The notes under the pieces were generated by a model, which was not told the origin of the DNA, searched no databases, and saw nothing but the letters and a program-made list of their open reading frames with translations. From Zymomonas mobilis subsp. mobilis ATCC 10988 (GTDB taxonomy: Bacteria > Pseudomonadota > Alphaproteobacteria > Sphingomonadales > Sphingomonadaceae): a stretch of 32,000 bases of DNA. Positions 8,239 through 28,850 of the stretch are shown here, piece after piece. The DNA lies in NCBI RefSeq assembly GCF_000175255.2, contig NC_017262.1, positions 660,001 to 692,000 on the forward strand, in the 5' to 3' direction. Each line of letters opens with the position of its first letter. The first letter of the stretch is position 1. A program made the translations under genes and the position numbers.

Positions 8239-8339
8239 GTATTAAATTTCCTGATTGCACGAGATTTTTGTTTACTGTTGCGCTTCGCTCGGACAGCTTG
8301 TCTTTGTCAAGGCACACAATCCGGTTAATAGTAGGCTTA

Positions 8340-9512: not shown

Positions 9513-9520
9513 TTGTAACC

Positions 9521-9558: not shown

Positions 9559-9589
9559 ATACCGCTTTCAATAAATAAAGGCGGCGATC

Positions 9590-11116
9590 CTATAAAAATT
9601 CGACCACTTCGCTGGCTTCAAAACTATTCGCCAAAGACCGCAATCGGCGCAGGACGGTCTCGCCTTTTAATTTATAATTACCGGAAAATTGCAGGATAAT
9701 TTTGTTATTCCGATAAAGAATAGTGCTTTTTTTCAGGCTAGTCGTTACACCGCCTGACAAACGCATACCCAAACGAATGGCTTTACCCCAACGCACAGCG
9801 CGGATCGTATCCGCTTCACTCAACAAATTATTAGTGATTTTCTTATCCATTGCACCGTCATAGCTGACGGCTAAAGCCTGACCGATCAAAGCCCGTCCAT
9901 AGGCATCCAATCCGACCCAACGCCCATGTAGAATAATACTCAAAATTTGTTCAGCCCGAAAATCGGGATTAGCCTGCCAGGCGCTATCTGCCAATAAACA
10001 AGCCGCATGACGTAAACGGTGATAAGCGGGCGGATCTTGAGCAAAAAGGGTCGACATCCAATCGTAAAGCGCCTCACCCTGCTGATAAAAACGACCTGCC
10101 GTTTCACCGCGCTGATTGGCACTCCATAAAAGCGGGTCTAACTTGCGGGTTGCCTTATCAAGGCTAAGATAGAGCAAACCTTCCCTTAATCCATAAGCCG
10201 AAGTCACCAAGGCTCGGCTATGAAGATGACGGCTCACCACGGCTAACAACGCAGCTGCATCCGAAAGCTGCTCGACACGCGAAGTTGAAATATTCGCCTT
10301 ATTTTTCAACTTCTTGGGACTATTGCGCTGAATAACCCGTATCAATTTGGAAGGTCGATCGGGCGACATGATATAATTATGTAAAACAGGGATCGGATAA
10401 TGCCTGACATGCATATCCAATTTAGCCAAAGACCGCCAAGCGCCGCCGACCATATAGAAAGGCAAATCGCGGGCATCGGCCAGCCAATCAATCTTCTTAA
10501 AGGCTTCCGATATAAAGTTATCCAAAGCATTGCGGCTTTTTTTACGAATATCCGCAATTCTTAAAACACCCAAGGGCAAAGAAACTCTGTCCTTCACCCG
10601 CCCTTTCGATATACGGATCAGTTCAAGACTACCGCCACCCAAATCGCCAACAATTCCGTCTGCATCGGGGATAGCGGACAAAACGCCATAACCGGAAGCA
10701 TAGCCCTCTTCTTCGCCCGACAAGACTTCAACTTCTAGCCCGATTTTGGCTATTTCACCGAGAAGGAAAGCTCCATTTTTAGCATCTCTCACCGCGGCTG
10801 TCGCAACCGTTCTAAGAGAGCTAAGTTCCATAATTTGCGCTAATTTCCAAAAACGCGTTAATTCGGATATTGCCAGCTCAATCGCTTTTTCATCAATTCG
10901 GCCATCTACTGGAATATTGCGGCCTAATTGGGCTGAAATCTTTTCATTGAACAGGATTCTCGGGGCGCGACTTAACTGGTCATACACCACCAGACGGATG
11001 GAATTAGAACCAATATCAATGATACCGATAGGTCCCGATTTGCACCATTTTTTCTGTTTCGGCATCGGGCATTTTTTATCCACGTCGTTCGATCCCTGCC
11101 TGTTATTCAATATCAT
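9590..11116 (-). CDS. ppx: Exopolyphosphatase (Ppx/GppA family)
   Basis: IGIIDIGSNSIRLVVYD and DLGGGSLEL are Ppx/GppA ASKHA-fold phosphate-binding motifs. The start is uncertain; an internal ATG at 11065 or a GTG a few codons upstream of it are alternatives. Confidence 0.9.
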   Translation of the reverse strand: MILNNRQGSNDVDKKCPMPKQKKWCKSGPIGIIDIGSNSIRLVVYDQLSRAPRILFNEKISAQLGRNIPVDGRIDEKAIELAISELTRFWKLAQIMELSSLRTVATAAVRDAKNGAFLLGEIAKIGLEVEVLSGEEEGYASGYGVLSAIPDADGIVGDLGGGSLELIRISKGRVKDRVSLPLGVLRIADIRKKSRNALDNFISEAFKKIDWLADARDLPFYMVGGAWRSLAKLDMHVRHYPIPVLHNYIMSPDRPSKLIRVIQRNSPKKLKNKANISTSRVEQLSDAAALLAVVSRHLHSRALVTSAYGLREGLLYLSLDKATRKLDPLLWSANQRGETAGRFYQQGEALYDWMSTLFAQDPPAYHRLRHAACLLADSAWQANPDFRAEQILSIILHGRWVGLDAYGRALIGQALAVSYDGAMDKKITNNLLSEADTIRAVRWGKAIRLGMRLSGGVTTSLKKSTILYRNNKIILQFSGNYKLKGETVLRRLRSLANSFEASEVVEFL

Positions 11117-11282
11117 GAAAAATCCGTTTTAAAGGGTCACTAGGACATAAAACTGGCCGCTAGGCAGGGAAAAACCTCCCTAATCCTATAATGCTCTTAT
11201 CCTATCACAGAAAAAAATCATTCCTTTTTATAGAAATATCGCCAGCCCATTATTAAAAAACAACAGGCTGGCTTATTCCATG

Positions 11283-13436: not shown

Positions 13437-13617
13437 CCATTAAGCGGAAAAGAACCACTGGCAGCTATCTCGACAAAAACGATCAGGCGCTTTCTCAACT
13501 TTGTATAGTGACAGATCTGATTTTCGAATCAACTCTATCAAAGATATGTGATATTTTTATAAAACCGCTTTTCTTTCTTCCGGTTGCCCCATAACGACAA
13601 AAAAAGACGACCCCGAA

Positions 13618-14262
13618 TTATATTTTTCGGCCACGTCTTTCTTCATCGGGGATTTCTTCACCGGCCATAATCGCGCGCACCATATTCAGGGTAATCGGGC
13701 CCCGTCTTTTCAAGGCCGCCTGATCCAACTTGTCGATCCAGTCCAAAACCGCAATATAATTATGCTCGATACGCGGCGTTACCCATTCCAATATTTCGGT
13801 TGAAACTGGCAATCCACGTCGCCCCAAACGCCTTTCAATCAAGGCCGCAATCAACGAATCGTCCGGTGCCTTAATCACCAAATGGGGGCTCGCTATCATT
13901 CGAGAACGTAAATCCGGCAATCTAATTTTCCAAAGCGGCGGCGGTTGATCGGCAATCACCAACAAAGGTCGCTTTAATCGCTCCGCCCTATTCCATGCAT
14001 GGAAAATAAATTCTTCTGACCGTCTTTCCGCATTATCAATCAATTCGCCGCCGGTGCGGGCAACAAACAGTCGCCCCAAAAGGCTGCGCCCCGATTTACG
14101 CATACCTGTTAAAAGCGCCGATTTTACAGGCCATTTCTGCCACAAACGCAACTGCTCAACGGCGATATTATTGGCGTCACTGACAATAAAATCTCCATCA
14201 TTTTCTGGCTCTGGCCAGATCAGAGGCAATGCCATCTGGGTGACAGGAGGAGAAGAGGTCAT
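13618..14262 (-). CDS. hdaA: DnaA-related regulatory protein HdaA (Hda homologue)
   Basis: 214 aa. N-terminal QMALPL resembles the beta-clamp-binding motif. The central part is an AAA+-like core. LPDLRSRM and the C-terminal PITLNMVRAIM match the Hda/DnaA domain III layout. The position between ppk and purM matches alphaproteobacterial synteny as I recall it. Confidence 0.75.
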   Translation of the reverse strand: MTSSPPVTQMALPLIWPEPENDGDFIVSDANNIAVEQLRLWQKWPVKSALLTGMRKSGRSLLGRLFVARTGGELIDNAERRSEEFIFHAWNRAERLKRPLLVIADQPPPLWKIRLPDLRSRMIASPHLVIKAPDDSLIAALIERRLGRRGLPVSTEILEWVTPRIEHNYIAVLDWIDKLDQAALKRRGPITLNMVRAIMAGEEIPDEERRGRKI

Positions 14263-14265
14263 CGG

Positions 14266-15363
14266 TCAGGGCGTGGGCGCCAAGGGCGCCTCCTTTCTTT
14301 TTTCGGGGCTGGATAAGCCAGCTTGGTTATCATTTTTCAAAACAGCCTTCCCTTGCGGGGAAGAAACCGGCGTTGGGGTTATCGTTCTTTGCGTAAATGT
14401 CGACACTTCCGAAGCCGGAGCCTCGATAGAAATAAAGGTCTGATCATTTTCAAGATTACCGCCAAACAAAGCCATCATATAGATCGCATCTATATGCTCA
14501 ACACCTTGTTTTAATAAGACAGGTAAATTCTCTACCGAAGCCGTTTTTAAAGTAAAATGGCCTAATATTTTTTGATCAATACCGTATTTCGCTAAAAAGG
14601 AAACAGAAACAGGGCCTCCCGGCCAACTATAATGCAACCGTATTTCAGGAGTCAAAAGACCACTCGCGCCATATTGCTCCAAAATATTTTGCCATTGTGC
14701 CTTATTATGGCTGCCAAGCTGGGTCGCATTCAACAAAACTGGATCAAGATTATCGCCAGTCGGCCTGACATAGGCAATGTGACTATGGCTGGTTTTGAAT
14801 TCTGCCCAGGCTTTTTGCCAGGCATTCCGCCATTCAAAACTAATCGGCGCTCCGGCTGTCCATGTCAAAGGCACCAATAACATCGGCGAAGAATGGTGAT
14901 GATTCTTGCGAAGGCCAAGTAACGCCCCACCCCGCGCCCGATCGAACTCTACCCCCAAAGTAGCAATATAACGATTCGCGCTAATCTCTTCTTTTTCAAC
15001 CACTACCGAAGACACAATCGAATCCAGCTTTTTGTCAGAAAAAGGCGTGGTTGGATCTTTCAGATTATCATCGCGGTCAAAATCATTCCGCTTGTCCCAC
15101 AATAATTGCCAGGCTTTTCTCTCTGCCAAACGCCATCCAATCAATCGGGCATTTTCACCTGATGAAGCACTGACATCGACACGAATACCGGTGACCAACA
15201 AATTTTCGGTTGTCTCAACTGGCGGAATACCTCTATCTCCCGGTTCAAGCTGGGCATAGGCAATGGTCGGGAACAAACTGTAACCGGTTATTATGGCCGG
15301 TAACAATCCGAAGAAAAAACGGGAAACTCCGTCAAAAAATGCTAATCTCCGCTTCACATGCAA
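14266..15363 (-). CDS. Hypothetical exported/membrane-anchored protein of unknown function, translationally coupled to hdaA
   Basis: 365 aa. The N-terminal hydrophobic segment FFFGLLPAIITGYSLFPTIAYAQ looks like a signal peptide or anchor. The C-terminal tail is Pro/Ser/Lys-rich. I recognise no catalytic motif. Its stop (14266-14268) lies 3 nt before the hdaA ATG (14262-14260). Confidence 0.6.
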   Translation of the reverse strand: MHVKRRLAFFDGVSRFFFGLLPAIITGYSLFPTIAYAQLEPGDRGIPPVETTENLLVTGIRVDVSASSGENARLIGWRLAERKAWQLLWDKRNDFDRDDNLKDPTTPFSDKKLDSIVSSVVVEKEEISANRYIATLGVEFDRARGGALLGLRKNHHHSSPMLLVPLTWTAGAPISFEWRNAWQKAWAEFKTSHSHIAYVRPTGDNLDPVLLNATQLGSHNKAQWQNILEQYGASGLLTPEIRLHYSWPGGPVSVSFLAKYGIDQKILGHFTLKTASVENLPVLLKQGVEHIDAIYMMALFGGNLENDQTFISIEAPASEVSTFTQRTITPTPVSSPQGKAVLKNDNQAGLSSPEKRKEAPLAPTP

Positions 15364-15417
15364 CCTTTTGAACAGTTCAGCTTAGAAATCCAAGTCTGAT
15401 GGTGTAGGGCTTTTTTT

Positions 15418-16518
15418 ATGACTAATAACAGCACGCAAAAATACAGTTATGCCGATGCCGGCGTTTCTATCGCAACCGGTAATGCGCTGGTCAAAGCCAT
15501 TGCACCCCTTGCCCGTGCGACGGCGAGAGCCGGAGCCAATGCCGATCTCGGAGGTTTCGGCGGCTTTTTTGATTTAAAAGCAGCCGGCTTCAATGATCCG
15601 TTACTGGTCGCGGCGAATGATGGTGTCGGAACCAAGGTAAAATTGGCGATTACCGGCAACCGTCACGATCATGTAGGCATTGACCTTGTGGCGATGTGTG
15701 TCAATGACCTGATTGTCCAAGGTGCCGAACCTTTATTCTTTTTAGACTATTTTGCTTCAGGTCATCTCGATCCCGAATTAGCCAAAAGAGTCATCGCAGG
15801 TATTGCCGAAGGCTGCAAGATTGCCGGCTGCGCTTTGATCGGTGGCGAAACGGCTGAAATGCCCGGCCTCTACGCCGATGGCGATTACGATCTGGCGGGT
15901 TTCTCTGTTGGTGCCGTCGAACGTTCTCAAGTGTTGGAAGCAGGTCGCGTCCGTGCGGGTGACATCATTCTGGGTATGGCCTCTTCCGGTGTTCACTCCA
16001 ACGGTTTTTCGCTTGTCCGCAAATTAGCCGACGGCCAAAAATGGGATTTAAAGGCTCCAGCGCCTTTCAAAAAGGACACGCTTCTTATTGATGTCTTGAT
16101 GGAACCGACCCGCATTTATGTCCGGTCACTATTACCTCTCATCCGCCAGAATGTCATTGCAGCCTTGGCACATATCACCGGCGGCGGTTTGCTTGAAAAT
16201 ATTCCGCGCACGCTTCCCGACAACTGCCATGCCGTTATTGATGCCAATCGTTGGGAACAGCCGGATTTGATGCAATTCTTGCAGCAAGAAGGCAATCTTG
16301 ATCCCGCCGAAATGGCGAGAACCTTTAACTGCGGTATTGGCATGGCGGTAATCGTCCATCCCGAAGATGCTGCCACCGTCCAAGCCGCTTTACATGAAGC
16401 AGGCGAAAGTGTTTATTCCATCGGAATAATCGAAGAAGGTCAGAAAGGCTGCACAGTTGCAGGCAAAGCCGGAAGCTGGAACAGCACTTCAGACTGGAAA
16501 GTAACCCATAATGGCTAA
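15418..16518 (+). CDS. purM: Phosphoribosylformylglycinamidine cyclo-ligase (AIR synthetase)
   Basis: 366 aa. Contains [24 protein letters not shown] and [11 protein letters not shown], which are PurM motifs. Confidence 0.97.
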
Positions 16519-17137
16519 TAGCCCAGCAAAGAAGAAGGTCGGTGTTTTAATCTCCGGCCGTGGATCGAATATGGAAGCCTTGATCGAGGCTTCCAACCGC
16601 CCCGATTGCCCTTATGAAATCACCTTGGTCTTCTCCAATATTGAAGATGCCCAAGGCCTCAAAATCGCCGAAGAGGCTGGCATCAAAACAGCTTTTCTCG
16701 ATCATCGCGGACATGGCGGACGGGCAGCTTATGATCAAAAAGTGCTGGCTATCTTACAGGAAGCCAAACTCGATATCGTGGTTCTCGCCGGTTATATGCG
16801 GATTGTAACGCCGGAATTTGTCTCAGCATGGGAAGGCCGGATGCTCAACATCCACCCCGCCCTTTTACCGAGCTTTACTGGACTTGATACCCATAAACGC
16901 GCGCTAGAATCTGGGGTCAGATGGCATGGCTGCACCGTGCATTTTGTCACTTCCGAACTAGATGCTGGGCCCATCATCACACAGGCGGCCGTTCCGGTCT
17001 ACGAAGACGACACCGAAGATAGCTTGGCAAAAAGGGTGTTGAAAGAAGAACACCGCATCTACGCCGAGGCGCTAGAAGACCTTGCTGCCGATCGTCTTAT
17101 TCTCAAAGATAACCGCGTTTTTCATAAGAAAGGATAA
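16511..17137 (+). CDS. purN: Phosphoribosylglycinamide formyltransferase
   Basis: 208 aa. Contains [24 protein letters not shown] and [14 protein letters not shown], which are PurN motifs. It overlaps purM by 8 nt. Confidence 0.95.
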
Positions 17138-17141
17138 TCTT

Positions 17142-17906
17142 ATGACAAAGGAATCTTCTGTCAAAATCGGTTTGATTGGCGCGGCTGGCCGGATGGGGAA
17201 AGCCATTCAAGAAGCCGCATCACAGCAAGACATTCAGCTATCTGGTGGCATCGGCCGGAAAGGTGCCGAATTCGGCAGCTATAACGATAGCGAAAGTCTG
17301 GCCAAGGCCTCTGATGTTTTGATCGACTTTTCAACGGCGGCGGCTCTTAAAGATAATATCGAAGCCGCCCTCCATCACAAAAAACCGATTATTATCGGCA
17401 CGACCGGCCTTACGGAAGCCGATCACCAACTGATTGAGCAAGCCGCTTCTAAAATTCCGGTTATCTTGGCCGCTAACACCTCGCTTGGGGTCAATATGCT
17501 GGCTGCTTTGGTCAAACAGGCTGCCGCCAAATTAGGCAGCGATTGGGATATCGAAATTGTGGAGATGCATCATCGCCACAAGAAAGATGCTCCATCAGGC
17601 ACAGCTTTATTACTAGGACGTGCCGCCGCCGAAGGCCGTGGCGAAAAATTGGAAGACATCGCCGATTTACAGCGCTGCCCCGCCACCGAACCGCGCGAAA
17701 CAGGCCGGATCGGCTTTGCCAGCTTACGGGGTGGCTCGGTTGCAGGCGACCATATGGTTGTTTTTGCGAGCGAAGGTGAAAGAATCGAATTAGGCCACCG
17801 CGCCGAAAGTCGGATTATTTTTGCCCGTGGTGCTTTGAAGGCCGCGCTTTGGCTTGCCGATCAATCTGCCGGATTTTACCAGATGAAGGACGTTCTTGGT
17901 TTATGA
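17142..17906 (+). CDS. dapB: 4-hydroxy-tetrahydrodipicolinate reductase
   Basis: Contains IGLIGAAGRMGKAI (Rossmann motif) and EIVEMHHRHKKDAPSGTA (DapB signature). I prefer ATG 17142 (MTKESSVKIG), 4 nt after the purN stop, over the extended start at 17082 in the ORF track. Confidence 0.93.
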   Translation: MTKESSVKIGLIGAAGRMGKAIQEAASQQDIQLSGGIGRKGAEFGSYNDSESLAKASDVLIDFSTAAALKDNIEAALHHKKPIIIGTTGLTEADHQLIEQAASKIPVILAANTSLGVNMLAALVKQAAAKLGSDWDIEIVEMHHRHKKDAPSGTALLLGRAAAEGRGEKLEDIADLQRCPATEPRETGRIGFASLRGGSVAGDHMVVFASEGERIELGHRAESRIIFARGALKAALWLADQSAGFYQMKDVLGL

Positions 17907-18550
17907 CCCCCGATTCTGTTGAAGAATTTTATCGGCGCTTAGCCAAGGATAATCCCAATCCGCGTTCGGAATTGGTTTTCAAAAATCCTTATACTTTACT
18001 GGTATCGGTTGTCCTGTCCGCACAGGCAACCGATGTCAGCGTTAACAAGGCGACTGAACCGTTATTCAAAATTGTCGACACCCCGCAACAGATGGTTAAC
18101 CTCGGGGAAGATCGCTTGAAAGACTATATCCGATCCATCGGGCTTTATAATAACAAAGCCAAAAATATCATTGCCCTGTCGCATATTCTGGTTGAAAAAT
18201 ACCAAGGACAAGTGCCTGCCGATCAAAAGGCATTGGAAGCGTTACCGGGGGTTGGACGGAAAACTGCTTTGGTCGTTTTGAATGTCGCCTTCAATCGTCC
18301 TACCATCGCGGTCGACACCCATATTTTTCGGGTTGCCAACCGGACAGGACTTGCCCCTGGCAAAGATGTCCGCGCTGTCGAAAAGGCATTAGAAGACGTC
18401 ACGCCCGAAAAATATCGCCTTCATGCGCATCATTGGCTCATTCTTTTCGGACGTTATATCTGTAAGGCCAGAAAACCCGAATGCCTGCGCTGCTTCGAAT
18501 CTGACCTTTGCGCCGCCGTCAAGGAAACGGGTATTCCCCTTCAATCCTGA
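17903..18550 (+). CDS. nth: Endonuclease III (DNA glycosylase / AP lyase)
   Basis: Contains the HhH-GPD block LPGVGRKTALVVLN, the catalytic D in VDTHIFRV, and a C-terminal 4Fe-4S cluster loop C-x6-C-x2-C-x5-C (CKARKPECLRCFESDLC). ATG 17903 overlaps the dapB stop as ATGA. The start at 17849 in the ORF track is probably too long. Confidence 0.93.
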   Translation: MTPDSVEEFYRRLAKDNPNPRSELVFKNPYTLLVSVVLSAQATDVSVNKATEPLFKIVDTPQQMVNLGEDRLKDYIRSIGLYNNKAKNIIALSHILVEKYQGQVPADQKALEALPGVGRKTALVVLNVAFNRPTIAVDTHIFRVANRTGLAPGKDVRAVEKALEDVTPEKYRLHAHHWLILFGRYICKARKPECLRCFESDLCAAVKETGIPLQS

Positions 18551-18558
18551 TGCATCGC

Positions 18559-19167
18559 CTAGGATTCGAGGTCTTCAATATTGATCTTGAATATTCGGGC
18601 GATCACATCGGCTGAATGCCCTGCCCTTGCCATAGCCGCAAAATGCCGCCTTTTAATTTTGATATCATCCCGATCCTCTTTTTCATAAAAAGGGCCCAGA
18701 TGGCGTTTTTTGGCATAATGCAAAGCCGTTTCCATGGCTGAATCGTTATTTTCTGTCAGACTATCAATAATCTTTTCATCAATACCAGCTGCTTTTAAAG
18801 CCGATTTCACCCTAATTTTGCCATATCCTCGTCTTTTAAAGGCATTATATTTCATTTCTGCAAATAGGGGGTCATTGATATAGCCAAGATTGATACAATA
18901 AGAAATAATCGCATAAATATCAGGGGGTGCGGTGCCAATCCACCCAGACTGATTTATTTTTCGTTTCAAATACTCTGACAATTTTTTCGAAGATGTTGCA
19001 TAACGTCCAACATAATATAAAGCGAGTTGACGTAATGAATCCTCATCAAGAGGTTTGCGTTGCTTGTCTTTTAAATGGTGATGCACGACTTGCGTCTCTG
19101 TCATAGTTTGATAAAGAATTGGGCAGTTATTATCCCGGGATATGGGCGGGATATTTTCTGACAGCAT
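18559..19167 (-). CDS. recX: RecX-family regulatory protein
   Basis: LRQLALYYVGRYATSSKKLSEYLKRK plus repeated helical units (FKRRGYGKIRVKSALKAAGI, ALHYAKKRHLG) fit the three-repeat RecX fold. An alternative start is ATG 19104 (MTETQ). That would leave a more realistic 98-bp divergent promoter region. Confidence 0.7.
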   Translation of the reverse strand: MLSENIPPISRDNNCPILYQTMTETQVVHHHLKDKQRKPLDEDSLRQLALYYVGRYATSSKKLSEYLKRKINQSGWIGTAPPDIYAIISYCINLGYINDPLFAEMKYNAFKRRGYGKIRVKSALKAAGIDEKIIDSLTENNDSAMETALHYAKKRHLGPFYEKEDRDDIKIKRRHFAAMARAGHSADVIARIFKINIEDLES

Positions 19168-19202
19168 ACTCTAAAAAGGTATGCCCCGGGGAGGAATAAA
19201 CG

Positions 19203-20972
19203 TTGTCGACTTTGGTCGGAAAGAAAAATGCTGTGGGCGATCAAGAACCAGTTTTAAAACCTACGCCTACCAATGATGATCAGGTAGCACGCCGCCGCTG
19301 TGATTTTGATACGATGGGCGAAGCCTTGGATTACGCGGCGTTATCCAAAAAAGGCATGAATTTTCATGATGCGCGTGGGTCACTTATCAGACCCTATCCC
19401 TTCAGTGAATTGCGTGCCGATGCTCTAAAGATGGCTTCAAGGCTGATTGCACGGGGGATGAAACCCGGTGACAGATTGGCTTTAATTGCAGAAACCTGTC
19501 CAGAATTTGCGGCTTTGTTTTTTGGGGCGATTTATGCCGGTGTTTGGCCGGTGCCGCTTCCTTTACCGACATCTTTTGGCGGGAAAGAAGCCTATATCGA
19601 CCAATTGGCGATCCAGCTTAAAAGCAGTGATCCCAGCCTGATTGCCTATCCAAAGGAATTATCGGAATTTGCCGAAAAAGCCGCTGCCAAAAATGGCGTG
19701 AAGGCGATGGCATGGGATGATCTTCTACTCGAAGATGCCCCCGTTATTGAATTACCCAAGGCGAAGAAAGACGATATCGCCTATCTTCAATATTCCAGTG
19801 GTTCCACGCGTTTCCCGCATGGCGTTATTATTACCCATCAAGCGTTGCTCAGCAATTTGAACGCGCATGGCTTGGGCATGAATATGCGGAATAATGACCG
19901 CTGTATTTCATGGCTGCCTTGGTATCATGATATGGGTCTGGTCGGCTGTATGCTGTCGATCATAGCCAATCAGATTTCAACCGATTATCTAAAAACCAAT
20001 GACTTTGCCCGCCGACCGCTGGCATGGCTTGATTTAATCACGCGGAATGAAGGCTATTCGATCAGCTATTCTCCGACTTTTGGCTATGATATTTGCGCGC
20101 GCCGCATGTCCAGCCAAACGAAAGCCGCTGACCGCTTTGACCTGTCCCGTTGGCGGGTTGCGGGTAATGGCGCGGATATGATCCGGCCTGATGTTATGCA
20201 GAAATTTGTTGATGCCTTCTCCGAAGCAGGCTTCAACCCCAATGCCTTTATGCCTTCCTATGGTCTGGCCGAAGCAACCCTTGCGGTTTCCTTGATGCCA
20301 TTGAACGAAGGTATTCGGGTCGAAATGGTCAAGGAAAGCCTTCTTTCCGGTAGCCAAGCAGATGAAAACCAACCGGAAAGATATCGTTCGATTGTCAATT
20401 GCGGCAAACCCGTCAAAGACACGACGATTTCTATCCGTAATGCCGATGGCAAAGATTTACCGGAACGCGAAGTTGGCCAAGTCTGGGTCAAAGGCCCCGG
20501 CATCATGAGCGGCTATTTTCGTGACAAAGAATCAACCGATGCCTGCATGGTCGATGGTTGGCTTGATACGGGCGATATGGGCTATATGTCCGACGGCTAT
20601 ATTTATATTGTTGGCCGGGCCAAAGATATGATCCTCGTCAATGGTTGTAACTATTGGCCACAGGATATCGAATGGGCCGTTGAACAGCTCCCCGGTTTCA
20701 AAGGGGGCGATATCGCCGCTTTTGCGATCACGACCGAATCTGGCGAAGAAATGCCAGCGGTTTTGGTGCAATGCCGGATGTCCGATTCCGAAGAAAGAAA
20801 GAAACTGCACGCTGAGATCAATCAGAAAGTGCGGACGATGATCGGGATGCCCTGCATGGTGGCCTTGGTGCCACCGCGTTCATTGCCTCGTACCAGCTCC
20901 GGTAAATTAAGCCGTGTGAAAGCACGGAATATGTATCTGACCGGTGCAATCAAGGCCTATGATCTGGACTAA
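19203..20972 (+). CDS. Fatty acyl-AMP ligase (FAAL, FadD32-like adenylate-forming enzyme)
   Basis: TTG start with GGAGGA 7 nt upstream. YLQYSSGSTRFPHGV, WLPWYHDMGLVG and WLDTGDMGYMSDGYIYIVGRAKDMILVNGCNYWPQDIE match FAAL-type blocks rather than CoA-ligase blocks. Confidence 0.8.
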   Translation: MSTLVGKKNAVGDQEPVLKPTPTNDDQVARRRCDFDTMGEALDYAALSKKGMNFHDARGSLIRPYPFSELRADALKMASRLIARGMKPGDRLALIAETCPEFAALFFGAIYAGVWPVPLPLPTSFGGKEAYIDQLAIQLKSSDPSLIAYPKELSEFAEKAAAKNGVKAMAWDDLLLEDAPVIELPKAKKDDIAYLQYSSGSTRFPHGVIITHQALLSNLNAHGLGMNMRNNDRCISWLPWYHDMGLVGCMLSIIANQISTDYLKTNDFARRPLAWLDLITRNEGYSISYSPTFGYDICARRMSSQTKAADRFDLSRWRVAGNGADMIRPDVMQKFVDAFSEAGFNPNAFMPSYGLAEATLAVSLMPLNEGIRVEMVKESLLSGSQADENQPERYRSIVNCGKPVKDTTISIRNADGKDLPEREVGQVWVKGPGIMSGYFRDKESTDACMVDGWLDTGDMGYMSDGYIYIVGRAKDMILVNGCNYWPQDIEWAVEQLPGFKGGDIAAFAITTESGEEMPAVLVQCRMSDSEERKKLHAEINQKVRTMIGMPCMVALVPPRSLPRTSSGKLSRVKARNMYLTGAIKAYDLD

Positions 20973-20985
20973 CCGTTTTTGAAAT

Positions 20986-21019
20986 ATATCCTTGCCGCTT
21001 TTTCTTCAGGCAAGGATAT
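20986..21019 (+). terminator. Hairpin terminator after the FAAL gene
   Basis: ATATCCTTGCC (20986-20996) pairs with GGCAAGGATAT (21009-21019), an 11-bp perfect stem. The following T-tract is weak (CTTCTC). Confidence 0.55.
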
Positions 21020-21070
21020 CTTCTCATAATTTGGCTTTCTCATCCTTTTCTTCTTCCTTACAAGGAAAGG

Positions 21071-23293
21071 ATGATGAAACGCCTTTTTTCTCTTCTCCCC
21101 AAAATAGATACTGTCCGAAATAACCGGAATTTCGGAAGAAAAAAGACCAAGGCTTGGCTAGCCTCTCTACTCCTTCCTATCAGCCTTGCAGTTTCATCAC
21201 CCTACCCGCTCTGGGCATCATCTGCTCTTTCCAAAACACCCGTTTCCTCTTCCCAAGAGACGCTCTTAGCCGCTTTAGAAAAATGGATGGCTTTACCTCG
21301 GGATAGCCAACTGACGGCCGCTCATCATCATAAAGAATGGGCTTTTGTTCGGTACCAAGCCGGACAACATCAGCTCCTCTTAACCCGTCCCGATCCCCAA
21401 GCCGACAGCTTGCCGCTAGATTGTATTCTGGCACATTATAAGGAAGATGACGGGCAAGCGCTCTATAACCTCACCTTCTCGCCGGATGACAGCCAACTGG
21501 CTTATGTTCGCGGCGGTGATCCTGAATTTCCAGATGCCCCACCACCGAACCCGACTTTCCAACCGCAAGCCCCCGAAGCCACAATTCATCTGATTGATCT
21601 GACTTCAGCCTCGGATAACATTATCGCCTCCGGCTATAATCCGGTCTTTTCGCCTGATGGCCAATCTCTCGTCTATATCTCGAAAAACAGCTTGTGGCTG
21701 TATAAACGGGACAGCCAAACACCTCCTCAAAAACTTTTTACGATTAAAGGGCATATTCGCGATCTTAGCTGGTCACCTAATGGTCAATCACTGGCTTTTG
21801 TCGATGATCGCATCGACCACGGCTTTATTGCCTTATATCGCATAACAAGCGGCCAATTAGAGTATTTACCCGCCGCTTTTGGTAATGACCTTTTTCCGGT
21901 TTTTTCGCCGGACAGCCAAAAACTCGCTTTTATTCGTGCCTATGAACCGCCTCAGTCCATATCTTCCCCTGACCGTGAAAAGGGTTGGTGGTCGCTGATT
22001 ATTGCAGATATAAACGATCTCACCCTTACTGAAAAATGGCATGCTCCCAAAGGCCAAGGCGAGGCCTATGCCGGAACCCGTCATCAAAATCTTTATTGGA
22101 CAGAGCAAAACCAGATTTTATTCCCTTGGGAGCAAGATGGCTGGCTCCATATCTACAGCCTCAATCCCGATAACGGGAAAGTCTCGCCTTTAATGCAGGG
22201 TGCTTTTGAGGTAGAACAATTCATCGTCGATAAGGCCAAAAACAGGCTCATCTATAGCGCTAATCGTGATAACCGCGATCATTACAGCCTTTGGGCGCGC
22301 TCTCTATCTTCAGAAAAAACGGAAAGATTGGGCAGTCAAGAGTCTCTCGCTTTTCAACCCGCGATAGCCAACGGAGCCTTGGCGGCTTTAATCAGCAATA
22401 ACTTCCAACTTCCCCATCCGGCGCTTGTGACCGAAAATAGCTTTCATAGCCTGACCTCGGAAAAGGCGTGGGATATCGCCCGCCAAAACTTTACACCCAT
22501 TGAAAGCGTTCATTTTCTGGCCTCTGATGGGAAAGAGAGTTACGGCCAATTTTTTGCAGCACGCCATAACCGCAATAAACCGCATCCGACCCTCCTCTTT
22601 CTGCATGGCGGGCCCCGACGGCAAATGCTGGACGGTTTCCCAGCGCAAAATTATTACCAGAATGCTTATATCTTTAATCAATTCCTCGCCAATAACGGCT
22701 ATAATGTCCTAAGTGTCAATTATCGCGGCGGCAGCGGCTATGGCCACGACTATCGCGAAGCCCCTGAAACTGGGCGGCAAGGTGCCAGTGAATATCGCGA
22801 CATTATGGGGGCAGTTCGCTACCTCCAAAACCGCCCTGATGTTGATAAGGCGCATATCGCGCTATGGGGTGGCAGTTGGGGCGGTTATCTGACCGCTTTG
22901 GCTCTGGCTCGAAACAGCGATATTTTTAAAGCCGGTGTCGATTTCCATGGGGTGCATAATATGCTGCGCCCCGCTCCGGCTAACCTCTCGCCCGATGCCC
23001 AAAGAGAATCTCAAAAGCTAATGTGGCAATCGTCACCCTTGGCTAATCTCGATCAATGGCGCGCGCCGGTTTTGGTCATTCACGGGGATGACGATCACAA
23101 TGTGCCCTTCACACAGTCAGAAGAACTGACCCATTTGTTACAAAATCGCGGGATTCCGCATGAAGAACTGGCCTTCCCGAATGAAAGGCATGGCTTCCTT
23201 CTTCATCGCCATTGGTTGACCGCATATAACAAAAGTTTTCTTTTTATATCCCGCTATCTATATGAAAATGCAGGAAAAAATGTTAATGAGTAA
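21071..23293 (+). CDS. S9-family serine peptidase (prolyl oligopeptidase / acylaminoacyl-peptidase type) with N-terminal TolB-like beta-propeller
   Basis: 740 aa with a signal-like N-terminus. Propeller-type repeats are present: FSPDDSQLAY, FSPDGQSLVY, WSPNGQSLAF, FSPDSQKLAF. The catalytic triad contexts are WGGSWGGY (Ser), HGDDDHNVP (Asp) and ERHGF (His). Confidence 0.88.
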   Translation: MMKRLFSLLPKIDTVRNNRNFGRKKTKAWLASLLLPISLAVSSPYPLWASSALSKTPVSSSQETLLAALEKWMALPRDSQLTAAHHHKEWAFVRYQAGQHQLLLTRPDPQADSLPLDCILAHYKEDDGQALYNLTFSPDDSQLAYVRGGDPEFPDAPPPNPTFQPQAPEATIHLIDLTSASDNIIASGYNPVFSPDGQSLVYISKNSLWLYKRDSQTPPQKLFTIKGHIRDLSWSPNGQSLAFVDDRIDHGFIALYRITSGQLEYLPAAFGNDLFPVFSPDSQKLAFIRAYEPPQSISSPDREKGWWSLIIADINDLTLTEKWHAPKGQGEAYAGTRHQNLYWTEQNQILFPWEQDGWLHIYSLNPDNGKVSPLMQGAFEVEQFIVDKAKNRLIYSANRDNRDHYSLWARSLSSEKTERLGSQESLAFQPAIANGALAALISNNFQLPHPALVTENSFHSLTSEKAWDIARQNFTPIESVHFLASDGKESYGQFFAARHNRNKPHPTLLFLHGGPRRQMLDGFPAQNYYQNAYIFNQFLANNGYNVLSVNYRGGSGYGHDYREAPETGRQGASEYRDIMGAVRYLQNRPDVDKAHIALWGGSWGGYLTALALARNSDIFKAGVDFHGVHNMLRPAPANLSPDAQRESQKLMWQSSPLANLDQWRAPVLVIHGDDDHNVPFTQSEELTHLLQNRGIPHEELAFPNERHGFLLHRHWLTAYNKSFLFISRYLYENAGKNVNE

Positions 23294-23299
23294 CGGTCT

Positions 23300-23491
23300 T
23301 CAAGGTAAGTCGCCGTAAAGCGCATAACTATAGAAGAGGTCAGCCCGCATAATAATTTCAACAGAATCGCCGCCAAGATCAATAGAACGATCGAGCCAAT
23401 AGCTTCTATGCTCAACAAGTTGATTTTTTAAAGTGCGGTCGGCTTCAAGACGAAGGTTTTCTGCATAGTTAACTTCTTTTTTATTTTCCAT
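23300..23491 (-). CDS. Hypothetical small acidic protein (63 aa)
   Basis: The only ORF of 60 aa or more in the 334-bp gap after the peptidase gene. It is divergent from the XRE regulator. The Shine-Dalgarno sequence is weak (TAGGG) and I recognise no family. Confidence 0.4.
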   Translation of the reverse strand: MENKKEVNYAENLRLEADRTLKNQLVEHRSYWLDRSIDLGGDSVEIIMRADLFYSYALYGDLP

Positions 23492-23666
23492 GCCGCCCTA
23501 CTCATTAAAAAATTATTATCTCACTCAATATGAAATTTTAGAATAAATCTGGGAAAATTTCTTTTTGTTTGCGAGCATTGTCAGGAAGTATTTGTATTAA
23601 ATTTTAACACATAGAACAACCAATATTTTGCAAAGACTTGGTCTCAAATTTTCGCATTGTGCATTC

Positions 23667-24134
23667 ATGCCCTCCCCATGTAACAAACTGAAATTATTGC
23701 GAAAAGCGGCCAAGCCTCCGATCACGATCAGAGCCTTAGCTGAAGCCATAGACATGCCTGCTTCCAGCTATGCCTTTTATGAAGATATGAATCGTTTCAA
23801 GAAAAAATATCTGCCCTTGGAATTGACCCGAAAAATAGCCGCCGTTTTAATGAATCACCAAATCAACCCAGAAGACATTTTGGCACTTTCCGGCCTGACC
23901 AGTTATGAATTAAAAACCGAAATCTCGGCCATCCGGCAAATCATGCCCCCCATACAATTTGTAAAAATGAATATGGCGTTACCCAATGAAACGCTGCTGG
24001 CCGAAATGTTTGAAGACTTGCTGGCCGATCTTGACCTAAATGCCCCCAAAAAGGAAATCGCCTATAATCTGGCACAACATCTGCCAGAAGCCCTTTCCGA
24101 GACCGCCCGAAAAATCCCTGATAAAATCCACTAA
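23667..24134 (+). CDS. XRE/Cro-CI-family helix-turn-helix transcriptional regulator with uncharacterised C-terminal half
   Basis: NKLKLLRKAAKPPITIRALAEAIDMPASSYAFYED fits the HTH_XRE pattern (helix, turn, recognition helix). I could not assign the C-terminal ~90 aa. I prefer ATG 23667; the ORF track starts at TTG 23628. Confidence 0.65.
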   Translation: MPSPCNKLKLLRKAAKPPITIRALAEAIDMPASSYAFYEDMNRFKKKYLPLELTRKIAAVLMNHQINPEDILALSGLTSYELKTEISAIRQIMPPIQFVKMNMALPNETLLAEMFEDLLADLDLNAPKKEIAYNLAQHLPEALSETARKIPDKIH

Positions 24135-24200
24135 TCAGGATGAATTTCTTTTCAAAATCTATAAAGGGGGAATGACCAAGCATAAAAAGGGGCATCATCG

Positions 24201-24686: not shown

Positions 24687-24763
24687 GCCCCCGTAGCTCA
24701 GTAGGATAGAGCGACGGTTTCCTAAACCGCAGGCCAGAGGTTCGAATCCCCTCGGGGGCACCA
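24687..24763 (+). tRNA. tRNA-Arg (anticodon CCT), CCA encoded
   Basis: Manual cloverleaf: acceptor GCCCCCG/CGGGGGC, D arm GCTC-AGTAGGATA-GAGC, anticodon loop TTCCTAA, T loop TTCGAAT, discriminator A plus CCA. There are two A-C mispairs (27:43 and 51:63). Confidence 0.85.
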
Positions 24764-24989: not shown

Positions 24990-27900
24990 GTGATAAAGAA
25001 AAACGAGCGACCTTATTCCCATTATTCCCTCTTACGGCTCAAAAATCTTTATCAGGAAAACCCTAGAAATCCGCATATTCTATCGCTTATCCACGATGAA
25101 CTAGGCTATAGAAACAGCGATTTCGCACAGGATTTAATCCAAAAAATCGAATGGGCTATTCAAAAAATAGACCGAGACGCCACTCAAAAAGAAGCCAGCT
25201 TTTCTTTTTTTGAAGAAGAAAAACCCCTTTCTCAAAAAGGGAATAAGAAATTTAACCTACTGGATAAATTGCTGCATTTCTTGCCCAGTTTTAAGGCTAA
25301 AAAAGCCAATGAACCCGCGGCTATTCTCGCGACATGGACAGCCGAAGAAGCGCTTTCACCTCAGACCTACCGCAATCCCGAAGATTTAGCCTCAGGCGAT
25401 AAAAAAGCGGTCGCCTCACTAACAAGAGCACAGCTTCCATGGGAAAATCGCGAAAGCCTGCCCCCTAAAAAAAGGCTCTATTATCAGATTATTCTTGGCT
25501 CTATCCCCATGCAGGAAGCAACAGAAAAACTGATCCAGCTTTTTGGCAAGGATGAAGAAACACGACAAAGAATAAAGGAAAAATCGGCTATTGCCGCTAT
25601 TCTCGTCGATGATCGCGGTTTTCTTGTAGAAGATAACAATGTTGCCATTTCCAGCTTTGCATGGGCGTTACCGCAAGCCTTAAAGGGAAAACTCGATATT
25701 CTAGGGGCTTGGCCGGATATCGAACCCCAAGTCACCGAATATCTCACCACTATCCTCCAGAATAACGGCACAGACGGGAAAAAGCAGCCTCTCGACAGAG
25801 GTATTTTGGAAGAAGCCTTTCAATGGATAACGGAACAATTTGGCTTGCCTTCCGATCTTATCGAAGCACCCAGCTTTGCGCTTCGGATCTACCACCCGTT
25901 GTCATCAGACAAGCCCCCGCAAGCTACGCTTCTTAATTCCTTTTTCTTGGGGGATCTTGCGCTGGCACGCAGTCTTCTTCAGCAGGGAAAGGCCAATTCC
26001 AGCCTAATCTATTATCTCGGTGATAAAAAAGCCGAAAATATTTTCAATTTGCTTACCGATCATGATGCCGTTGAAAAAGCCGTTTCGCCTGCCCTAATGC
26101 CGATCGCCCGTTGGCCTTCCGCTGGCGGTCATGCTCTGGTGCTATTGCAACAAGCCGCCGTTAATCTAACCCGTGACCAATTACAGGAAAAAGACGGCAT
26201 CATCGCCGTTAATGGGCCCCCGGGGACAGGGAAAACAACCTTACTTCGGGATGTTATTGCGGCAGCGGTGGTCGATCGCGCCACGGCCATGGCCGAATTT
26301 GATGACCCAGAACACGCCTTCATCCCGACTGGTAAAAAAATAACGATGGGCGAAAAGGCGTTTTTCCATCTTTACCGCCTCGACCCGTCGATCAAAGGGC
26401 ATGAAATTATTGTTGCTTCCAGTAATAACAAGGCGGTCGAAAATATCAGCCAAGAATTACCGGCTATAGAGGCTATTGGCCGCTCAACAGAAGAATTAAA
26501 CTATTTCCGTAGCATCAGCGATCAACTCCTCAACCCGCAAAGCTATTTTGAAAAAAATAACAGCGCAGATGATAAAAAAACGGAAAATAACAAAAGCTGG
26601 GGGTTAATCGCGGCCGCTTTGGGCAATGCCAAAAATCGACATCAATTTTTGCAAAGTTTTTGGTGGGATCAAGAATATGGTTTCAGAAATTATCTGAAAG
26701 CGGCTCGGGGCGATAAAGTCGTTCTTCCTACCCGAAATCCAACAACAAAACAGGTCATCGGTGAGCATCAACCCGCTATTGTCGAAGCCGAAAATCCCCC
26801 TTCCCCCCAAGAGGCCAAGACCCGTTGGCAAAAATCCCGAATTCACTTCAAAAACCTCAAAAATGAAATTGAGACGGAATTAAAAGACCTCCATACGGTG
26901 CGACATATCGTTCAGGAGATAACAAAATTACGCAAGCCGCTCACCGAAAGTGAAACCGCTTTTTCGCATCTGCAACGCCTTACAACCCAAGCCAAAGATC
27001 ATCACCGCTATTGCTTTAAACAACAGGCAAAAGCCAAAGCTATCCATGAAGGCGCGCTGGAAAATATAGCTCGCCATCAAAGCGAACGACCTTGGATATT
27101 TGCCCGCTGGTTCAAAACCAAAGGCTGGGAAGCATGGCTCCAAGCCTATACACGATTGGAACTTCTCGCCTCTCGTGCCGAAATTGACGAAAAGCTTGCC
27201 GATCAATCTTATAGTGAAGCAGCCCAGTCATTAGAAAAGCTACAATCTGAATATGAAGCACAAAAAAAACAGCTTGAACATTTGCAGCGGAAGCTTGCCG
27301 ACTACAATAATCGGATAGCGCCTTATCGTGCGTCTCTTGGCGATAGAATTATTGACGATTCATTTTTCAAAAAAAGCCATGAAGAGATCAATCTTACTTC
27401 CCCATGGCTCCCCGACAGCTTGCATCGGAAAAGAGAAGATCTTTTTATTGCGGCTCTGAACCTTCACCATGCCTTTATCGATGCTTCTGCACAAAAATTT
27501 CTACATAACCTAAGCATCTTCATCAAAATCTTCTCCTCAGGTTCGCCTTCGAACGAAGATGAAAAACAATATCTCGGCGACCTATGGTCAAGCCTATTCA
27601 TGGTCGTTCCCGTCATTTCAACCACCTTTGCCTCAATAGGCCGTATGCTGGGTAACCTTCCGCCTAATAGTATTGGCTGGCTTCTGATTGATGAAGCAGG
27701 ACAAGCCGTGCCACAAGCCGCCGCAGGGGCAATTCTGTGGGCAAAGCGTTCAGTCGTCGTCGGCGACCCTTTGCAAATCCCCCCCGTCGTTTCTTTGCCG
27801 GAGCAACTGACCTCCAAGATTTGCCAATTTTTCAAAGTTGATAAATCAATCTGGTCAGCGCCAGATGCTTCAGCGCAAAGTTTGGCCGATCAAGCCTCCA

Positions 27901-28565
27901 ATTTCCAAGCTGTCTTCAATTCGGATCAGGATGGTCGCCGCGTTGGCATCCCTTTATTGGTGCATCGACGCTGCCAGAATCCGATGTTCGAGATTTCAAA
28001 CCGAATTGCTTATGACAACCAGATGGTTCATGCTGCTGGCAATCCCTCCATTGGTGCTATCGGCAAGGTAATTGGCCGATCCCGTTGGCTGGATGTAAAA
28101 GGTGAAGCAGATACCAAATGGTGCGAAGCCGAAGGCCAAGTTGTTATCGATTTTCTAGAAAAGCTGGCAGCAGCAAGCATAACCTCCCCCGATTTATTTA
28201 TCATTACCCCCTTTCGCATTGTCTCAAGCGAATTAAAGCTGCGCCTTAGCCAAAAATCGAGCCTACTTGAAAGACTCCAAATCAAAAATAGTGAATGGAT
28301 TAGAAGCCATATTGGCACAGTTCATACATTTCAGGGGAAAGAAGCGGATTCTGTTATTTTGCTACTAGGGGCTCCTGCGAATAATCAAAACGGTGCGCGC
28401 CGCTGGGCAGCCGAAACGCCAAATATTTTTAATGTTGCAGTATCACGAGCCAAGCAGAATATTTACGTCATTGGCTCTTATGATGCATGGGCAAAAGTTG
28501 GTTATACACAAGATATTGCACATAGCCTGCCCTGTAATCGTAGCAATAACAGCCCTGCGGCATAA
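24990..28565 (+). CDS. Large (1191 aa) Upf1/DNA2-like superfamily-1B helicase (AAA_11/AAA_12-type core) with an uncharacterised N-terminal domain and a long coiled-coil insertion
   Basis: GTG start; there is no in-frame ATG for about 170 codons. Helicase motifs: Q-like LLQQAAVN; I GPPGTGKT (aa 409-416, nt 26214-26237); Ia VASSNNKAVENI (475-486); TTFAS (878-882); II DEAGQ (901-905, nt 27690-27704); III VVVGDPLQIPPV (922-933); IV HRRCQNPM (992-999); V VHTFQGKEAD (1111-1120); VI NVAVSRAK (1148-1155). I could not assign aa 1-385 or aa 487-871. Confidence 0.85.
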   Translation: MIKKNERPYSHYSLLRLKNLYQENPRNPHILSLIHDELGYRNSDFAQDLIQKIEWAIQKIDRDATQKEASFSFFEEEKPLSQKGNKKFNLLDKLLHFLPSFKAKKANEPAAILATWTAEEALSPQTYRNPEDLASGDKKAVASLTRAQLPWENRESLPPKKRLYYQIILGSIPMQEATEKLIQLFGKDEETRQRIKEKSAIAAILVDDRGFLVEDNNVAISSFAWALPQALKGKLDILGAWPDIEPQVTEYLTTILQNNGTDGKKQPLDRGILEEAFQWITEQFGLPSDLIEAPSFALRIYHPLSSDKPPQATLLNSFFLGDLALARSLLQQGKANSSLIYYLGDKKAENIFNLLTDHDAVEKAVSPALMPIARWPSAGGHALVLLQQAAVNLTRDQLQEKDGIIAVNGPPGTGKTTLLRDVIAAAVVDRATAMAEFDDPEHAFIPTGKKITMGEKAFFHLYRLDPSIKGHEIIVASSNNKAVENISQELPAIEAIGRSTEELNYFRSISDQLLNPQSYFEKNNSADDKKTENNKSWGLIAAALGNAKNRHQFLQSFWWDQEYGFRNYLKAARGDKVVLPTRNPTTKQVIGEHQPAIVEAENPPSPQEAKTRWQKSRIHFKNLKNEIETELKDLHTVRHIVQEITKLRKPLTESETAFSHLQRLTTQAKDHHRYCFKQQAKAKAIHEGALENIARHQSERPWIFARWFKTKGWEAWLQAYTRLELLASRAEIDEKLADQSYSEAAQSLEKLQSEYEAQKKQLEHLQRKLADYNNRIAPYRASLGDRIIDDSFFKKSHEEINLTSPWLPDSLHRKREDLFIAALNLHHAFIDASAQKFLHNLSIFIKIFSSGSPSNEDEKQYLGDLWSSLFMVVPVISTTFASIGRMLGNLPPNSIGWLLIDEAGQAVPQAAAGAILWAKRSVVVGDPLQIPPVVSLPEQLTSKICQFFKVDKSIWSAPDASAQSLADQASNFQAVFNSDQDGRRVGIPLLVHRRCQNPMFEISNRIAYDNQMVHAAGNPSIGAIGKVIGRSRWLDVKGEADTKWCEAEGQVVIDFLEKLAAASITSPDLFIITPFRIVSSELKLRLSQKSSLLERLQIKNSEWIRSHIGTVHTFQGKEADSVILLLGAPANNQNGARRWAAETPNIFNVAVSRAKQNIYVIGSYDAWAKVGYTQDIAHSLPCNRSNNSPAA

Positions 28566-28748: not shown

Positions 28749-28775
28749 CTTGCTTCACTCCAAGAAGGAGAAGAT

Positions 28776-28850
28776 GGTGGACGCGGCAAGGATTGAACTT
28801 GCGACCCCTGCGATGTCAACACAGTGCTCTACCACTGAGCTACGCGTCCT
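28776..28850 (-). tRNA. tRNA-Val (anticodon GAC), CCA encoded
   Basis: The reverse complement folds cleanly: GGACGCG-TA-GCTC-AGTGGTA-GAGC-A-CTGTG-TTGACAT-CGCAG-GGGTC-GCAAG-TTCAATC-CTTGC-CGCGTCC-A-CCA. Confidence 0.92.

Follow-up and report, generated by a model that had tools for sequence, protein, structure and literature searches.

The window analysed here, a 32,000-nucleotide (nt) stretch of DNA from Zymomonas mobilis subsp. mobilis ATCC 10988, encodes a 1191-amino-acid (aa) helicase whose N-terminal ~385 residues, here called the head, precede the helicase motor. We consider it likely that this head is a genuine orphan module, and that the helicase carrying it probably serves in defence. 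Residues 1-385 are translated and under purifying selection. An alpha/beta domain within them has no detectable relative outside its helicase clade. All intact copies examined have the head fused to the helicase, with no partner gene, and the helicase is recurrently located in the defence islands of other bacteria. A sequence-only reading of this DNA had treated aa 1-385 as one unassigned module, possibly a sensor or an effector. The region proved to be real and family-specific; however, it is not a single module but has four parts (a helix motif, a tether, the alpha/beta domain and a helicase neck).

By exact look-up, the helicase sequence is identical to WP_014500598.1 / AEH62431.1 of the same strain, and its orthologue in strain ZM4 is ZMO0695. 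The names given to it in databases are 'DEAD/DEAH box helicase', 'AAA domain-containing protein' and 'uncharacterized protein'.

Architecture of the head

AlphaFold2 (AF2) models were built for aa 1-400 with 53 homologues (pLDDT, the predicted local distance difference test, of 87.1; predicted template modelling (pTM) score of 0.71) and for the full-length protein with 48 full-length homologues (pLDDT of 90.1, pTM of 0.83). The two models agree on the layout of the head, and the pTM of the full-length model suggests that the head is docked on the motor. The gene and the four parts of the head are listed below, with the evidence for each in brackets.

24990..28565, + strand: whole gene, a single-gene, putative Upf1-like superfamily 1B (SF1B) helicase of 1191 aa (open reading frame (ORF) list, exact-sequence look-up, full-length AF2 model)
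25008..25190, + strand: N-terminal basic three-helix motif, aa 7-67 (AF2, alignment A6 of 52 relatives, DruH3 profile)
25191..25313, + strand: disordered, low-complexity, K/E/F-rich tether, aa 68-108 (pLDDT of 34-50, conservation, GC content)
25314..25904, + strand: orphan alpha/beta domain, aa 109-305 (AF2, profile and Foldseek searches, conservation)
25905..26141, + strand: neck, aa 306-384 (invariant residues, retention in a Klebsiella plasmid paralogue)

The helix motif comprises helices at residues 14-23, 28-38 and 44-67, with a pLDDT of 93-97 in both models, and its residues L17, E37, L38, R41 and L49 are invariant. In the tether, the pLDDT falls below 50 at aa ~68-88 and low conservation continues to ~aa 108. 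Its conservation is the lowest of the protein (consensus frequency of 0.22), and its length varies between relatives. The GC content of the first 300 nt of the gene (0.377) is the gene minimum, compared with 0.42-0.53 in the other 300-nt blocks and 0.47 in the window. The recount agreed with the earlier statements that the first ~100 codons are the most AT-rich and that the line 25201-25260 has 17/60 G+C. This AT-richness is explained by the helix motif together with the disordered and poorly conserved tether, which holds the 17/60 line.

The alpha/beta domain was modelled with a pLDDT mostly above 90. It is predicted to contain helices at 109-121, 174-185, 222-231, 235-256 and 270-284, and strands at 141-143, 161-168, 171-173, 198-207, 218-220 and 296-303. 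Across 62 full-length relatives, the residues W116, E120, W151, G210, S221, S222, F223, W225 and W241, together with S317, F318, D322 and W375 of the neck, were present in 62/62 sequences. P124 (61/62), G170 (61/62), D207 (60/62) and E245 (59/62) of the domain were near-invariant. The pair S221/S222 lies at a strand-to-helix junction in the model. No histidine, lysine, arginine or cysteine within aa 109-305 was conserved at ≥95% in these relatives.

The neck contains a PPxxxLLNSFFLxDL helix, a YLG and an RWP element (the latter with W375) and a modelled helix at 320-331. It joins the head to RecA1 and runs into LLQQAAVN and Walker A. The neck, including the LLNSFFLGDL patch, S317 and D322, is part of the helicase chassis rather than of the orphan module, since it is kept in a paralogue that lacks the alpha/beta domain. 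This paralogue, a coiled-coil Upf1-like helicase of 964 aa, is encoded within the transfer region on conjugative plasmids (MOBH/MPF_F) in 548 Klebsiella plasmid records (for example, positions 6458-9352 of a locus from the K. pneumoniae plasmid NZ_CP097690.1), shows 33% identity over the whole motor, and retains ...DDLINSFFIQELRKL...SWP...QQLAVN... (neck LINSFFIQEL).

Constraint, translation and orphan status

A motif check of the ORF translation located LLQQAAVN at residue 385, GPPGTGKT at 409, LATWTAEE... at 113, RLYYQIILGSIP at 162, ILVDDRGF... at 204 and LLNSFFLGDL... at 314, each at the residue given by the sequence-only reading. The four patches which that reading had called conserved-looking are the most conserved stretches, with a mean consensus frequency of 0.67-0.77 against 0.54 over aa 1-385 in the 62 relatives. 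The mean consensus frequency was 0.50-0.62 for aa 101-385, 0.22 for aa 51-100, 0.29-0.44 for the coiled coil and 0.49-0.79 for the other helicase blocks; aa 101-385 are about as well conserved as the RecA blocks at the lower end of this range. The acidic residues D207, D208 and E214 had been proposed as conserved. This holds for D207; however, position 208 is a lysine in 38/62 relatives and E214 is only partially conserved (43/62), and a catalytic trio is therefore unsupported as a set.

The ratio of nonsynonymous to synonymous substitution rates (dN/dS) was calculated against the syntenic orthologue of Z. mobilis AN0101, a comparison in which dS is close to saturation, and amounted to 0.21 in the helix motif, 0.16 in the tether, 0.09 in the alpha/beta domain, 0.03 in the connector, 0.06 in RecA2 and 0.09 in the coiled coil. 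Among 12 Z. mobilis alleles, the variable sites were spread evenly across the domains (0.015-0.047 per residue). A hot spot of diversifying selection in the head was considered and rejected on the basis of this even allelic variation and of the low dN/dS throughout. The even variation argues against a fast-evolving protein sensor, and would fit the recognition of a conserved nucleic-acid feature or of a small ligand.

The possibility that aa 1-385, or the AT-rich first ~100 codons, are untranslated and that the true start lies downstream was also addressed. The ORF starts with a GTG, which is the earliest start codon past the in-frame stop at 24933 and is preceded by a weak Shine-Dalgarno sequence. 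Together with the low GC content of the first 300 nt, these features could favour a downstream start. Against this, more than 50 relatives carry the motif RPYFxKSIxELEAxF...L..L..EL.FR.T.RA..L (core RPYFxxSIxxLExLF) beginning 3-6 residues past their own start codon, which fixes the start codon; the motif is conserved at the protein level from residue ~7. Furthermore, the dN/dS is low even in the helix motif and the tether (0.16-0.21), there is no in-frame methionine before residue ~183, and aa 10-67 are folded by AF2 with a pLDDT above 93. A start far downstream, which the sequence-only reading had said would count against its proposal, is refuted for practical purposes.

A Pfam search of aa 1-385/400 at E≤10 returned only a chance match to DUF4532; NCBIfam, PADLOC and PHROGs gave no match in this region, the alpha/beta domain included, and a search of Protein Data Bank (PDB) sequences with aa 1-400 gave none. 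Head profiles of 30 sequences (A2) and of 67 sequences including distant plasmid branches (A5) were searched against PDB sequences and gave no credible match. In the profile searches against the PDB, the matches to QsrR (E 0.056), to the designed alpha-repeat binder bGFP-A 4xl5 (through a repeat-like segment) and to CopG (E 0.13) were discarded as chance. The structure prediction and Foldseek search that had been proposed gave a confident model of aa 1-400 and no match in the PDB or BFVD (best E of 0.78, template modelling score of about 0.1). The sequence-only reading had seen no convincing signature of known effectors in aa 1-385, and the searches agree with it. Pfam, PADLOC, NCBIfam, PHROGs and Foldseek gave no profile or fold match in the head to PD-(D/E)xK, HNH, phospholipase D (PLD), HEPN, TIR, SIR2, NERD or Schlafen AlbA_2, and no housekeeping domain was matched by sequence or Foldseek. 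A mapping of the secondary-structure order and of the conserved acidic residues onto PD-(D/E)xK and RNase H-like topologies was rejected as unsupported: E120, D207 and E214 match these neither in order nor in position, no lysine is conserved, and D207 is lost in distant branches.

Motor, family and genomic context

The features of the motor were as follows.

26142..26237, + strand: Q-like motif LLQQAAVN (385-392) to Walker A GPPGTGKT (409-416) (motif scan)
26805..27347, + strand: antiparallel coiled-coil hairpin within RecA1, helices 606-697 and 711-786 (full-length AF2 model)
27690..28451, + strand: Walker B DEAGQ (901-905), motif III GDPLQ (925), motif V TVHTFQGKE (1110) and motif VI VAVSRA (1149) (motif scan)

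All of the SF1 motifs are intact (aa 385, 409, 475 (Ia), 901, 925, 1110 and 1149), and Q387 and Q388 are invariant in the 62 relatives. Pfam identified AAA_11 (aa 874-934), AAA_12 (aa 1041-1163) and P-loop matches around residue 400, as well as SLFN-g3_helicase at E 0.003. Foldseek analysis of the full-length model returned Senataxin/Sen1, Aquarius, Upf1, IGHMBP2 and Dna2, with E values of 1e-15 to 1e-10, and also ZNFX1. From its motifs and model, the protein is predicted to be an Upf1-like SF1B helicase with a 1B barrel and a stalk within RecA1. The coiled-coil hairpin of ~180 residues is the least conserved folded part of the protein, and gave weak matches to the coiled coils of SMC, JetC and LmuB.

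A head-specific pattern was used to collect 80 genome loci. In about 60 of these, a whole-protein tblastn alignment was colinear over aa ~7-1180, with 61 full-length ORFs aligned as a single high-scoring segment pair; the remaining loci were split, truncated or at contig ends. When a profile of the head alone was run exhaustively with HMMER, it gave 335 clusters (50% identity) at E<1e-30, and every full-length match was 1000-1290 aa in length with the head at the N-terminus. The hidden Markov model comparison that had been proposed, of a separate against a fused module, found the module always fused to the helicase in full-length matches. The helicase part alone gave 3874 clusters at 90% identity. 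Clustering across the loci identified no recurrent neighbour among the four genes on each side. As no partner gene could supply them, sensing or effector functions other than that of the motor must reside in the helicase polypeptide itself.

A word-indexed protein search with the head alone as the query returned only fragments of ≤683 aa. These were rejected as stand-alone head genes; they are split or frameshifted copies with helicase pieces directly behind them, and full-length members are plentiful. Disrupted copies were observed in Brevundimonas diminuta, Nordella sp. HKS 07 and others; the damage included the internal loss of aa ~382-688, frameshifts that split the gene into 2-3 ORFs, and C-terminal truncations. 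The helicase gene appears, from these sequences, to be often pseudogenised.

The family is patchily spread over Alpha-, Beta- and Gammaproteobacteria, Acidobacteriota, Nitrospirota, Bacteroidota and Melainabacteria, and 19 plasmids carry the head. A viral origin was rejected, given that the head was present in only 3 of 2.9 million IMG/VR contigs and that the lone 'phage' record is an island beside a prophage integrase. The alpha/beta domain is kept in Vibrio pVP157-1 (hhalign probability of 97.5%, E 7e-12) and, at 22-28% identity, in plasmids of Pseudomonas, Acidiphilium and Acetobacter. These distant Pseudomonas, Acidiphilium, Acetobacter and Vibrio branches begin at the alpha/beta domain, without the helix motif. 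Within the distant plasmid branches, D207 can be lost, as in that of Pseudomonas, where it is replaced; E120, both serines of the Ser-Ser pair and the tryptophans are retained. A Bacillus plasmid relative retains the first motif only, IIEAWWNLETLTP. The N-terminal heads differ between paralogues on a constant chassis.

In other bacteria, the gene lies among known defence genes. In E. coli H6, the order is Hachiman, DUF4238, the helicase gene and Shango, with integrases present. An integrase-borne locus of Klebsiella and other Enterobacterales (locus positions 8621-23630), next to smpB, carries in order an integrase, the helicase gene, a 406-aa protein, Gabija (GajB, GajA) and Shango (SngC, SngB, SngA); the Enterobacterales helicase forms a 90% cluster of 1417 sequences. 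The gene stands beside HigBA, with Gabija nearby, on a metagenome contig, and among HNH+ATPase, DUF4145 and Hxs genes on a K. pneumoniae IncF plasmid. Direct neighbours in other loci included Mrr / type IV restriction, HamA, SngC, PD-Lambda-1, MkoA, BrxH, AbiEi and MobA. The 406-aa protein of the Enterobacterales island has no Pfam match and is not conserved beside the helicase elsewhere.

In Zymomonas, the gene is flanked by two tRNA genes.

24687..24763, + strand: tRNA-Arg(CCT), 5' of the helicase gene (ARAGORN; same flank in Z. mobilis AN0101)
28775..28849, - strand: tRNA-Val(GAC), 3' of the helicase gene (ARAGORN; same flank in Z. mobilis AN0101)

The remaining neighbours encode a small multidrug resistance (SMR) transporter, a YfdX protein and an OsmC-like protein. 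In strain AN0101, which represents a second Zymomonas lineage, the helicase gene is present at the same site between the same two tRNAs. Its nucleotide identity to the window gene is 73.5%, and the aligned flanks show 75-87%, mostly 79-87%. This synteny argues that the Zymomonas gene is resident and vertically inherited, and is not a recent island. A search around the gene for att-like direct repeats matching the 3' ends of the tRNAs found none, and a promoter and terminator scan gave no signal above chance. Upstream of the SMR gene, the window contains a 168-aa ORF (23628-24134, + strand) without a Pfam match at E≤0.001; on visual inspection, the N-terminal portion resembles a helix-turn-helix of the Cro/C1 type. 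Relative to window positions 24165-24178, a contig of the closely related Zymomonas sp. metagenome-assembled genome W26 has ~1.4 kb of extra DNA (5750-7184) between this ORF and the SMR gene, which may be an insertion element.

Function of the head and comparison with known systems

Helicase-based systems, among them Mokosh, Hachiman, Druantia, Gabija, Shango and CoCoNuT, are common, but to our knowledge the way in which they recognise an invader is mostly unexplained. As the present family is large, single-gene and without a recognisable nuclease, its head is the obvious place for target recognition or for killing. We tentatively prefer, at a little short of an even chance, the reading that the head is the recognition or regulatory part of the helicase, a sensor or regulator rather than an enzyme. 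The N-terminal CH domain of Upf1 regulates its motor. By analogy, the alpha/beta domain, with the helix motif on its tether assisting, would direct or gate the ATP-driven 5'-3' motor, and the motor would act on the invading nucleic acid by unwinding it, by stripping proteins from it, or by stalling replication or transcription intermediates of the phage or plasmid. A regulator is favoured over an enzyme because no basic or histidine residues are conserved, because D207 is dispensable in the distant branches, and because heads vary on a constant chassis; the docking of the head on the motor that the full-length model suggests was also counted toward it.

Several points weigh against the head being a sensor or regulator of an immune helicase. 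The Zymomonas locus is no defence island, given its SMR, YfdX and OsmC neighbours and its synteny in two lineages. The distant branches adjoin the plasmid backbone genes RepA, ParA, ParM/StbA, MobI or umuDC, or tra genes, a location that hints at plasmid biology; the Vibrio pVP157-1 copy instead lies beside lipase, recombinase and HNH genes. A domain that senses variable phage proteins should itself vary, yet the alpha/beta domain is highly conserved and the allelic variation is even. The invariant E120 and S221-S222, at the strand-to-helix junction, could mark a site of catalysis or of ligand binding. Finally, the literature on ZMO0695, the helicase family, AAA_11/AAA_12 defence candidates and DefensePredictor yielded no description.

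The main alternative, which we consider unlikely, is that the alpha/beta domain is an effector, namely a new hydrolase (a nuclease, an NTPase or a nucleotide-modifying enzyme) that would replace the PLD of Mokosh type II and would be fed its substrate by the helicase, as in Dna2, SLFN11/13 and Hhe. The closest defence relatives pair this type of helicase with a nuclease (Mokosh; CnuH-CnuE) and, as both the PLD and a partner gene are absent here, an effector in cis is the economical expectation. The conservation of the domain, which equals that of the catalytic core (dN/dS of 0.09), the invariance of E120, S221 and S222, the near-invariance of D207 and E245 and the position of the two serines speak for an effector. 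However, Pfam at E≤10, PDB profiles and Foldseek matched the domain to none of the nuclease or hydrolase families, no histidine, lysine, arginine or cysteine is conserved, and the Pseudomonas plasmid branch has another residue in place of D207. With S317 and D322 assigned to the neck, the universal polar residues left are E120 and the Ser-Ser pair. Rather improbable, in our view, is a non-immune helicase serving maintenance, repair or plasmid biology, in which the head would be a partner-binding or oligomerisation domain and the defence neighbours would reflect hitch-hiking on mobile islands. Such a role would suit a gene that belongs to the Zymomonas core, keeps its place between tRNA-Arg and tRNA-Val among neighbours of housekeeping type, is under uniform purifying selection, and has distant branches beside RepA, ParA, ParM and MobI or in the transfer region of the 548 Klebsiella plasmids. 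It does not readily explain the patchy distribution, the repeated position of the gene as the first cargo gene of integrase islands near Gabija, Shango, Hachiman and DUF4238, or the frequent pseudogenised copies. The top profile match is, moreover, a validated defence helicase, and the N-terminal motif is common to DruH.

The preferred sensor or regulator reading and the effector reading both fall within a wider proposal, which we regard as possible but somewhat doubtful, that the family is a widespread single-protein immune system with a Mokosh/CnuH-type chassis without a known nuclease, an undescribed alpha/beta fold as effector or sensor, and a recognition or recruitment step common with DruH. 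If true, a bare Upf1-like motor would have been made into an antiviral or anti-plasmid weapon by an undescribed head fold. Z. mobilis is an industrial ethanologen, and a resident anti-DNA or anti-phage helicase could affect its transformability and phage resistance.

The chassis is of a known kind (Mokosh/CnuH/Upf1-like), while the head and the nuclease-less single-gene architecture are undescribed in the literature searched. The best profile match of the helicase was PADLOC Mokosh type II MkoC (PDLC03924; E 3.1e-72), with aa 387-1167 aligned to profile positions 253-947 of 1136. Like the present family, MkoC is a single gene, has an Upf1/COG1112-type helicase including a helical insertion, and is located in defence islands. 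A PLD nuclease, which in type II forms the C-terminal part of the same protein and bears HxKx4D, defines Mokosh and is needed for its defence (Millman et al. 2022). Unlike Mokosh type II, the window helicase lacks this PLD, with no PLDc match at E≤1, no HxKx4D (present in only 1/62 relatives) and only 37 residues past motif VI. Positions 948-1136 of the MkoC profile are unmatched by the helicase, and positions 1-252 do not align to the head. Judged by these alignments, the window helicase should not be classed as Mokosh type II; automated annotation may nevertheless label such helicases in this way through the motor match, despite the missing PLD. Mokosh type I (MkoA and MkoB) consists of a helicase with a serine/threonine kinase (STK) and a separate PLD nuclease. 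The window helicase has only partial, RecA2-side matches to MkoA, Pfam identified no kinase domain in it, and there is no conserved neighbour in the 80 loci.

The CnuH protein of CoCoNuT (type II/III) is an Upf1-like SF1 helicase in which Walker A is followed by a large insertion, coiled-coil or helical, and which has variable fused N-terminal domains; it is encoded with a downstream gene for a winged helix-turn-helix (wHTH)-nuclease, CnuE, and with the McrBC-like GTPase/nuclease genes CnuBC (PMC11090510). The heads of CnuH are SmpB-like oligonucleotide/oligosaccharide-binding (OB), RelE-like or wHTH domains (Bell et al., eLife 2024, PMC11090510). The window helicase likewise has a helical insertion after Walker A (606-697, 711-786). 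It differs in having no conserved CnuE- or CnuBC-type neighbour and in being flanked by tRNA genes, and Foldseek of its head recovered no OB, RelE or wHTH head. Upf1, Sen1/Senataxin, Aquarius and IGHMBP2 share the motor fold of the window helicase, with its 1B barrel and stalk, and likewise have an N-terminal accessory domain before RecA1; however, neither by sequence nor by Foldseek does the window head resemble the CH domain, the brace of Sen1 or the ARM domain of Aquarius. Compared with these eukaryotic SF1B helicases, the stalk is enlarged to a ~180-residue coiled-coil hairpin, and the protein is bacterial and found in mobile elements and defence islands. Dna2 and SLFN11/13 similarly place an N-terminal non-helicase domain before an Upf1/Dna2-like helicase in one chain, but the window head matches neither the PD-(D/E)xK/Fe-S domain of Dna2 nor the AlbA_2 core of Schlafen by Pfam or Foldseek.

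A more limited likeness was found to Druantia. When the first 70 residues of 52 relatives were compared with PADLOC, 17/52 matched DruH3 at E≤0.1 (best 7e-7), and no other PADLOC family was matched by more than one of them. With the full head sequences, the match covers profile positions 5-55 of 1142. The helix motif of the window itself is too diverged to match DruH at E≤0.1. DruH is the partner of the DruE helicase; the N-terminal domain of DruH is attached flexibly, is needed for defence and has no function assigned to it (bioRxiv 10.64898/2026.05.12.722862). Unlike DruH of Druantia type III, the window family has no Ig-like repeats, no C-terminal single-stranded DNA/ATP pocket and no DruE-like conserved neighbour. 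The small element common to both ties together two otherwise unrelated defence proteins; it would support a connection of the helicase with defence, hints at a common recognition or recruitment step, and offers a handle on the unexplained N-terminal domain of DruH.

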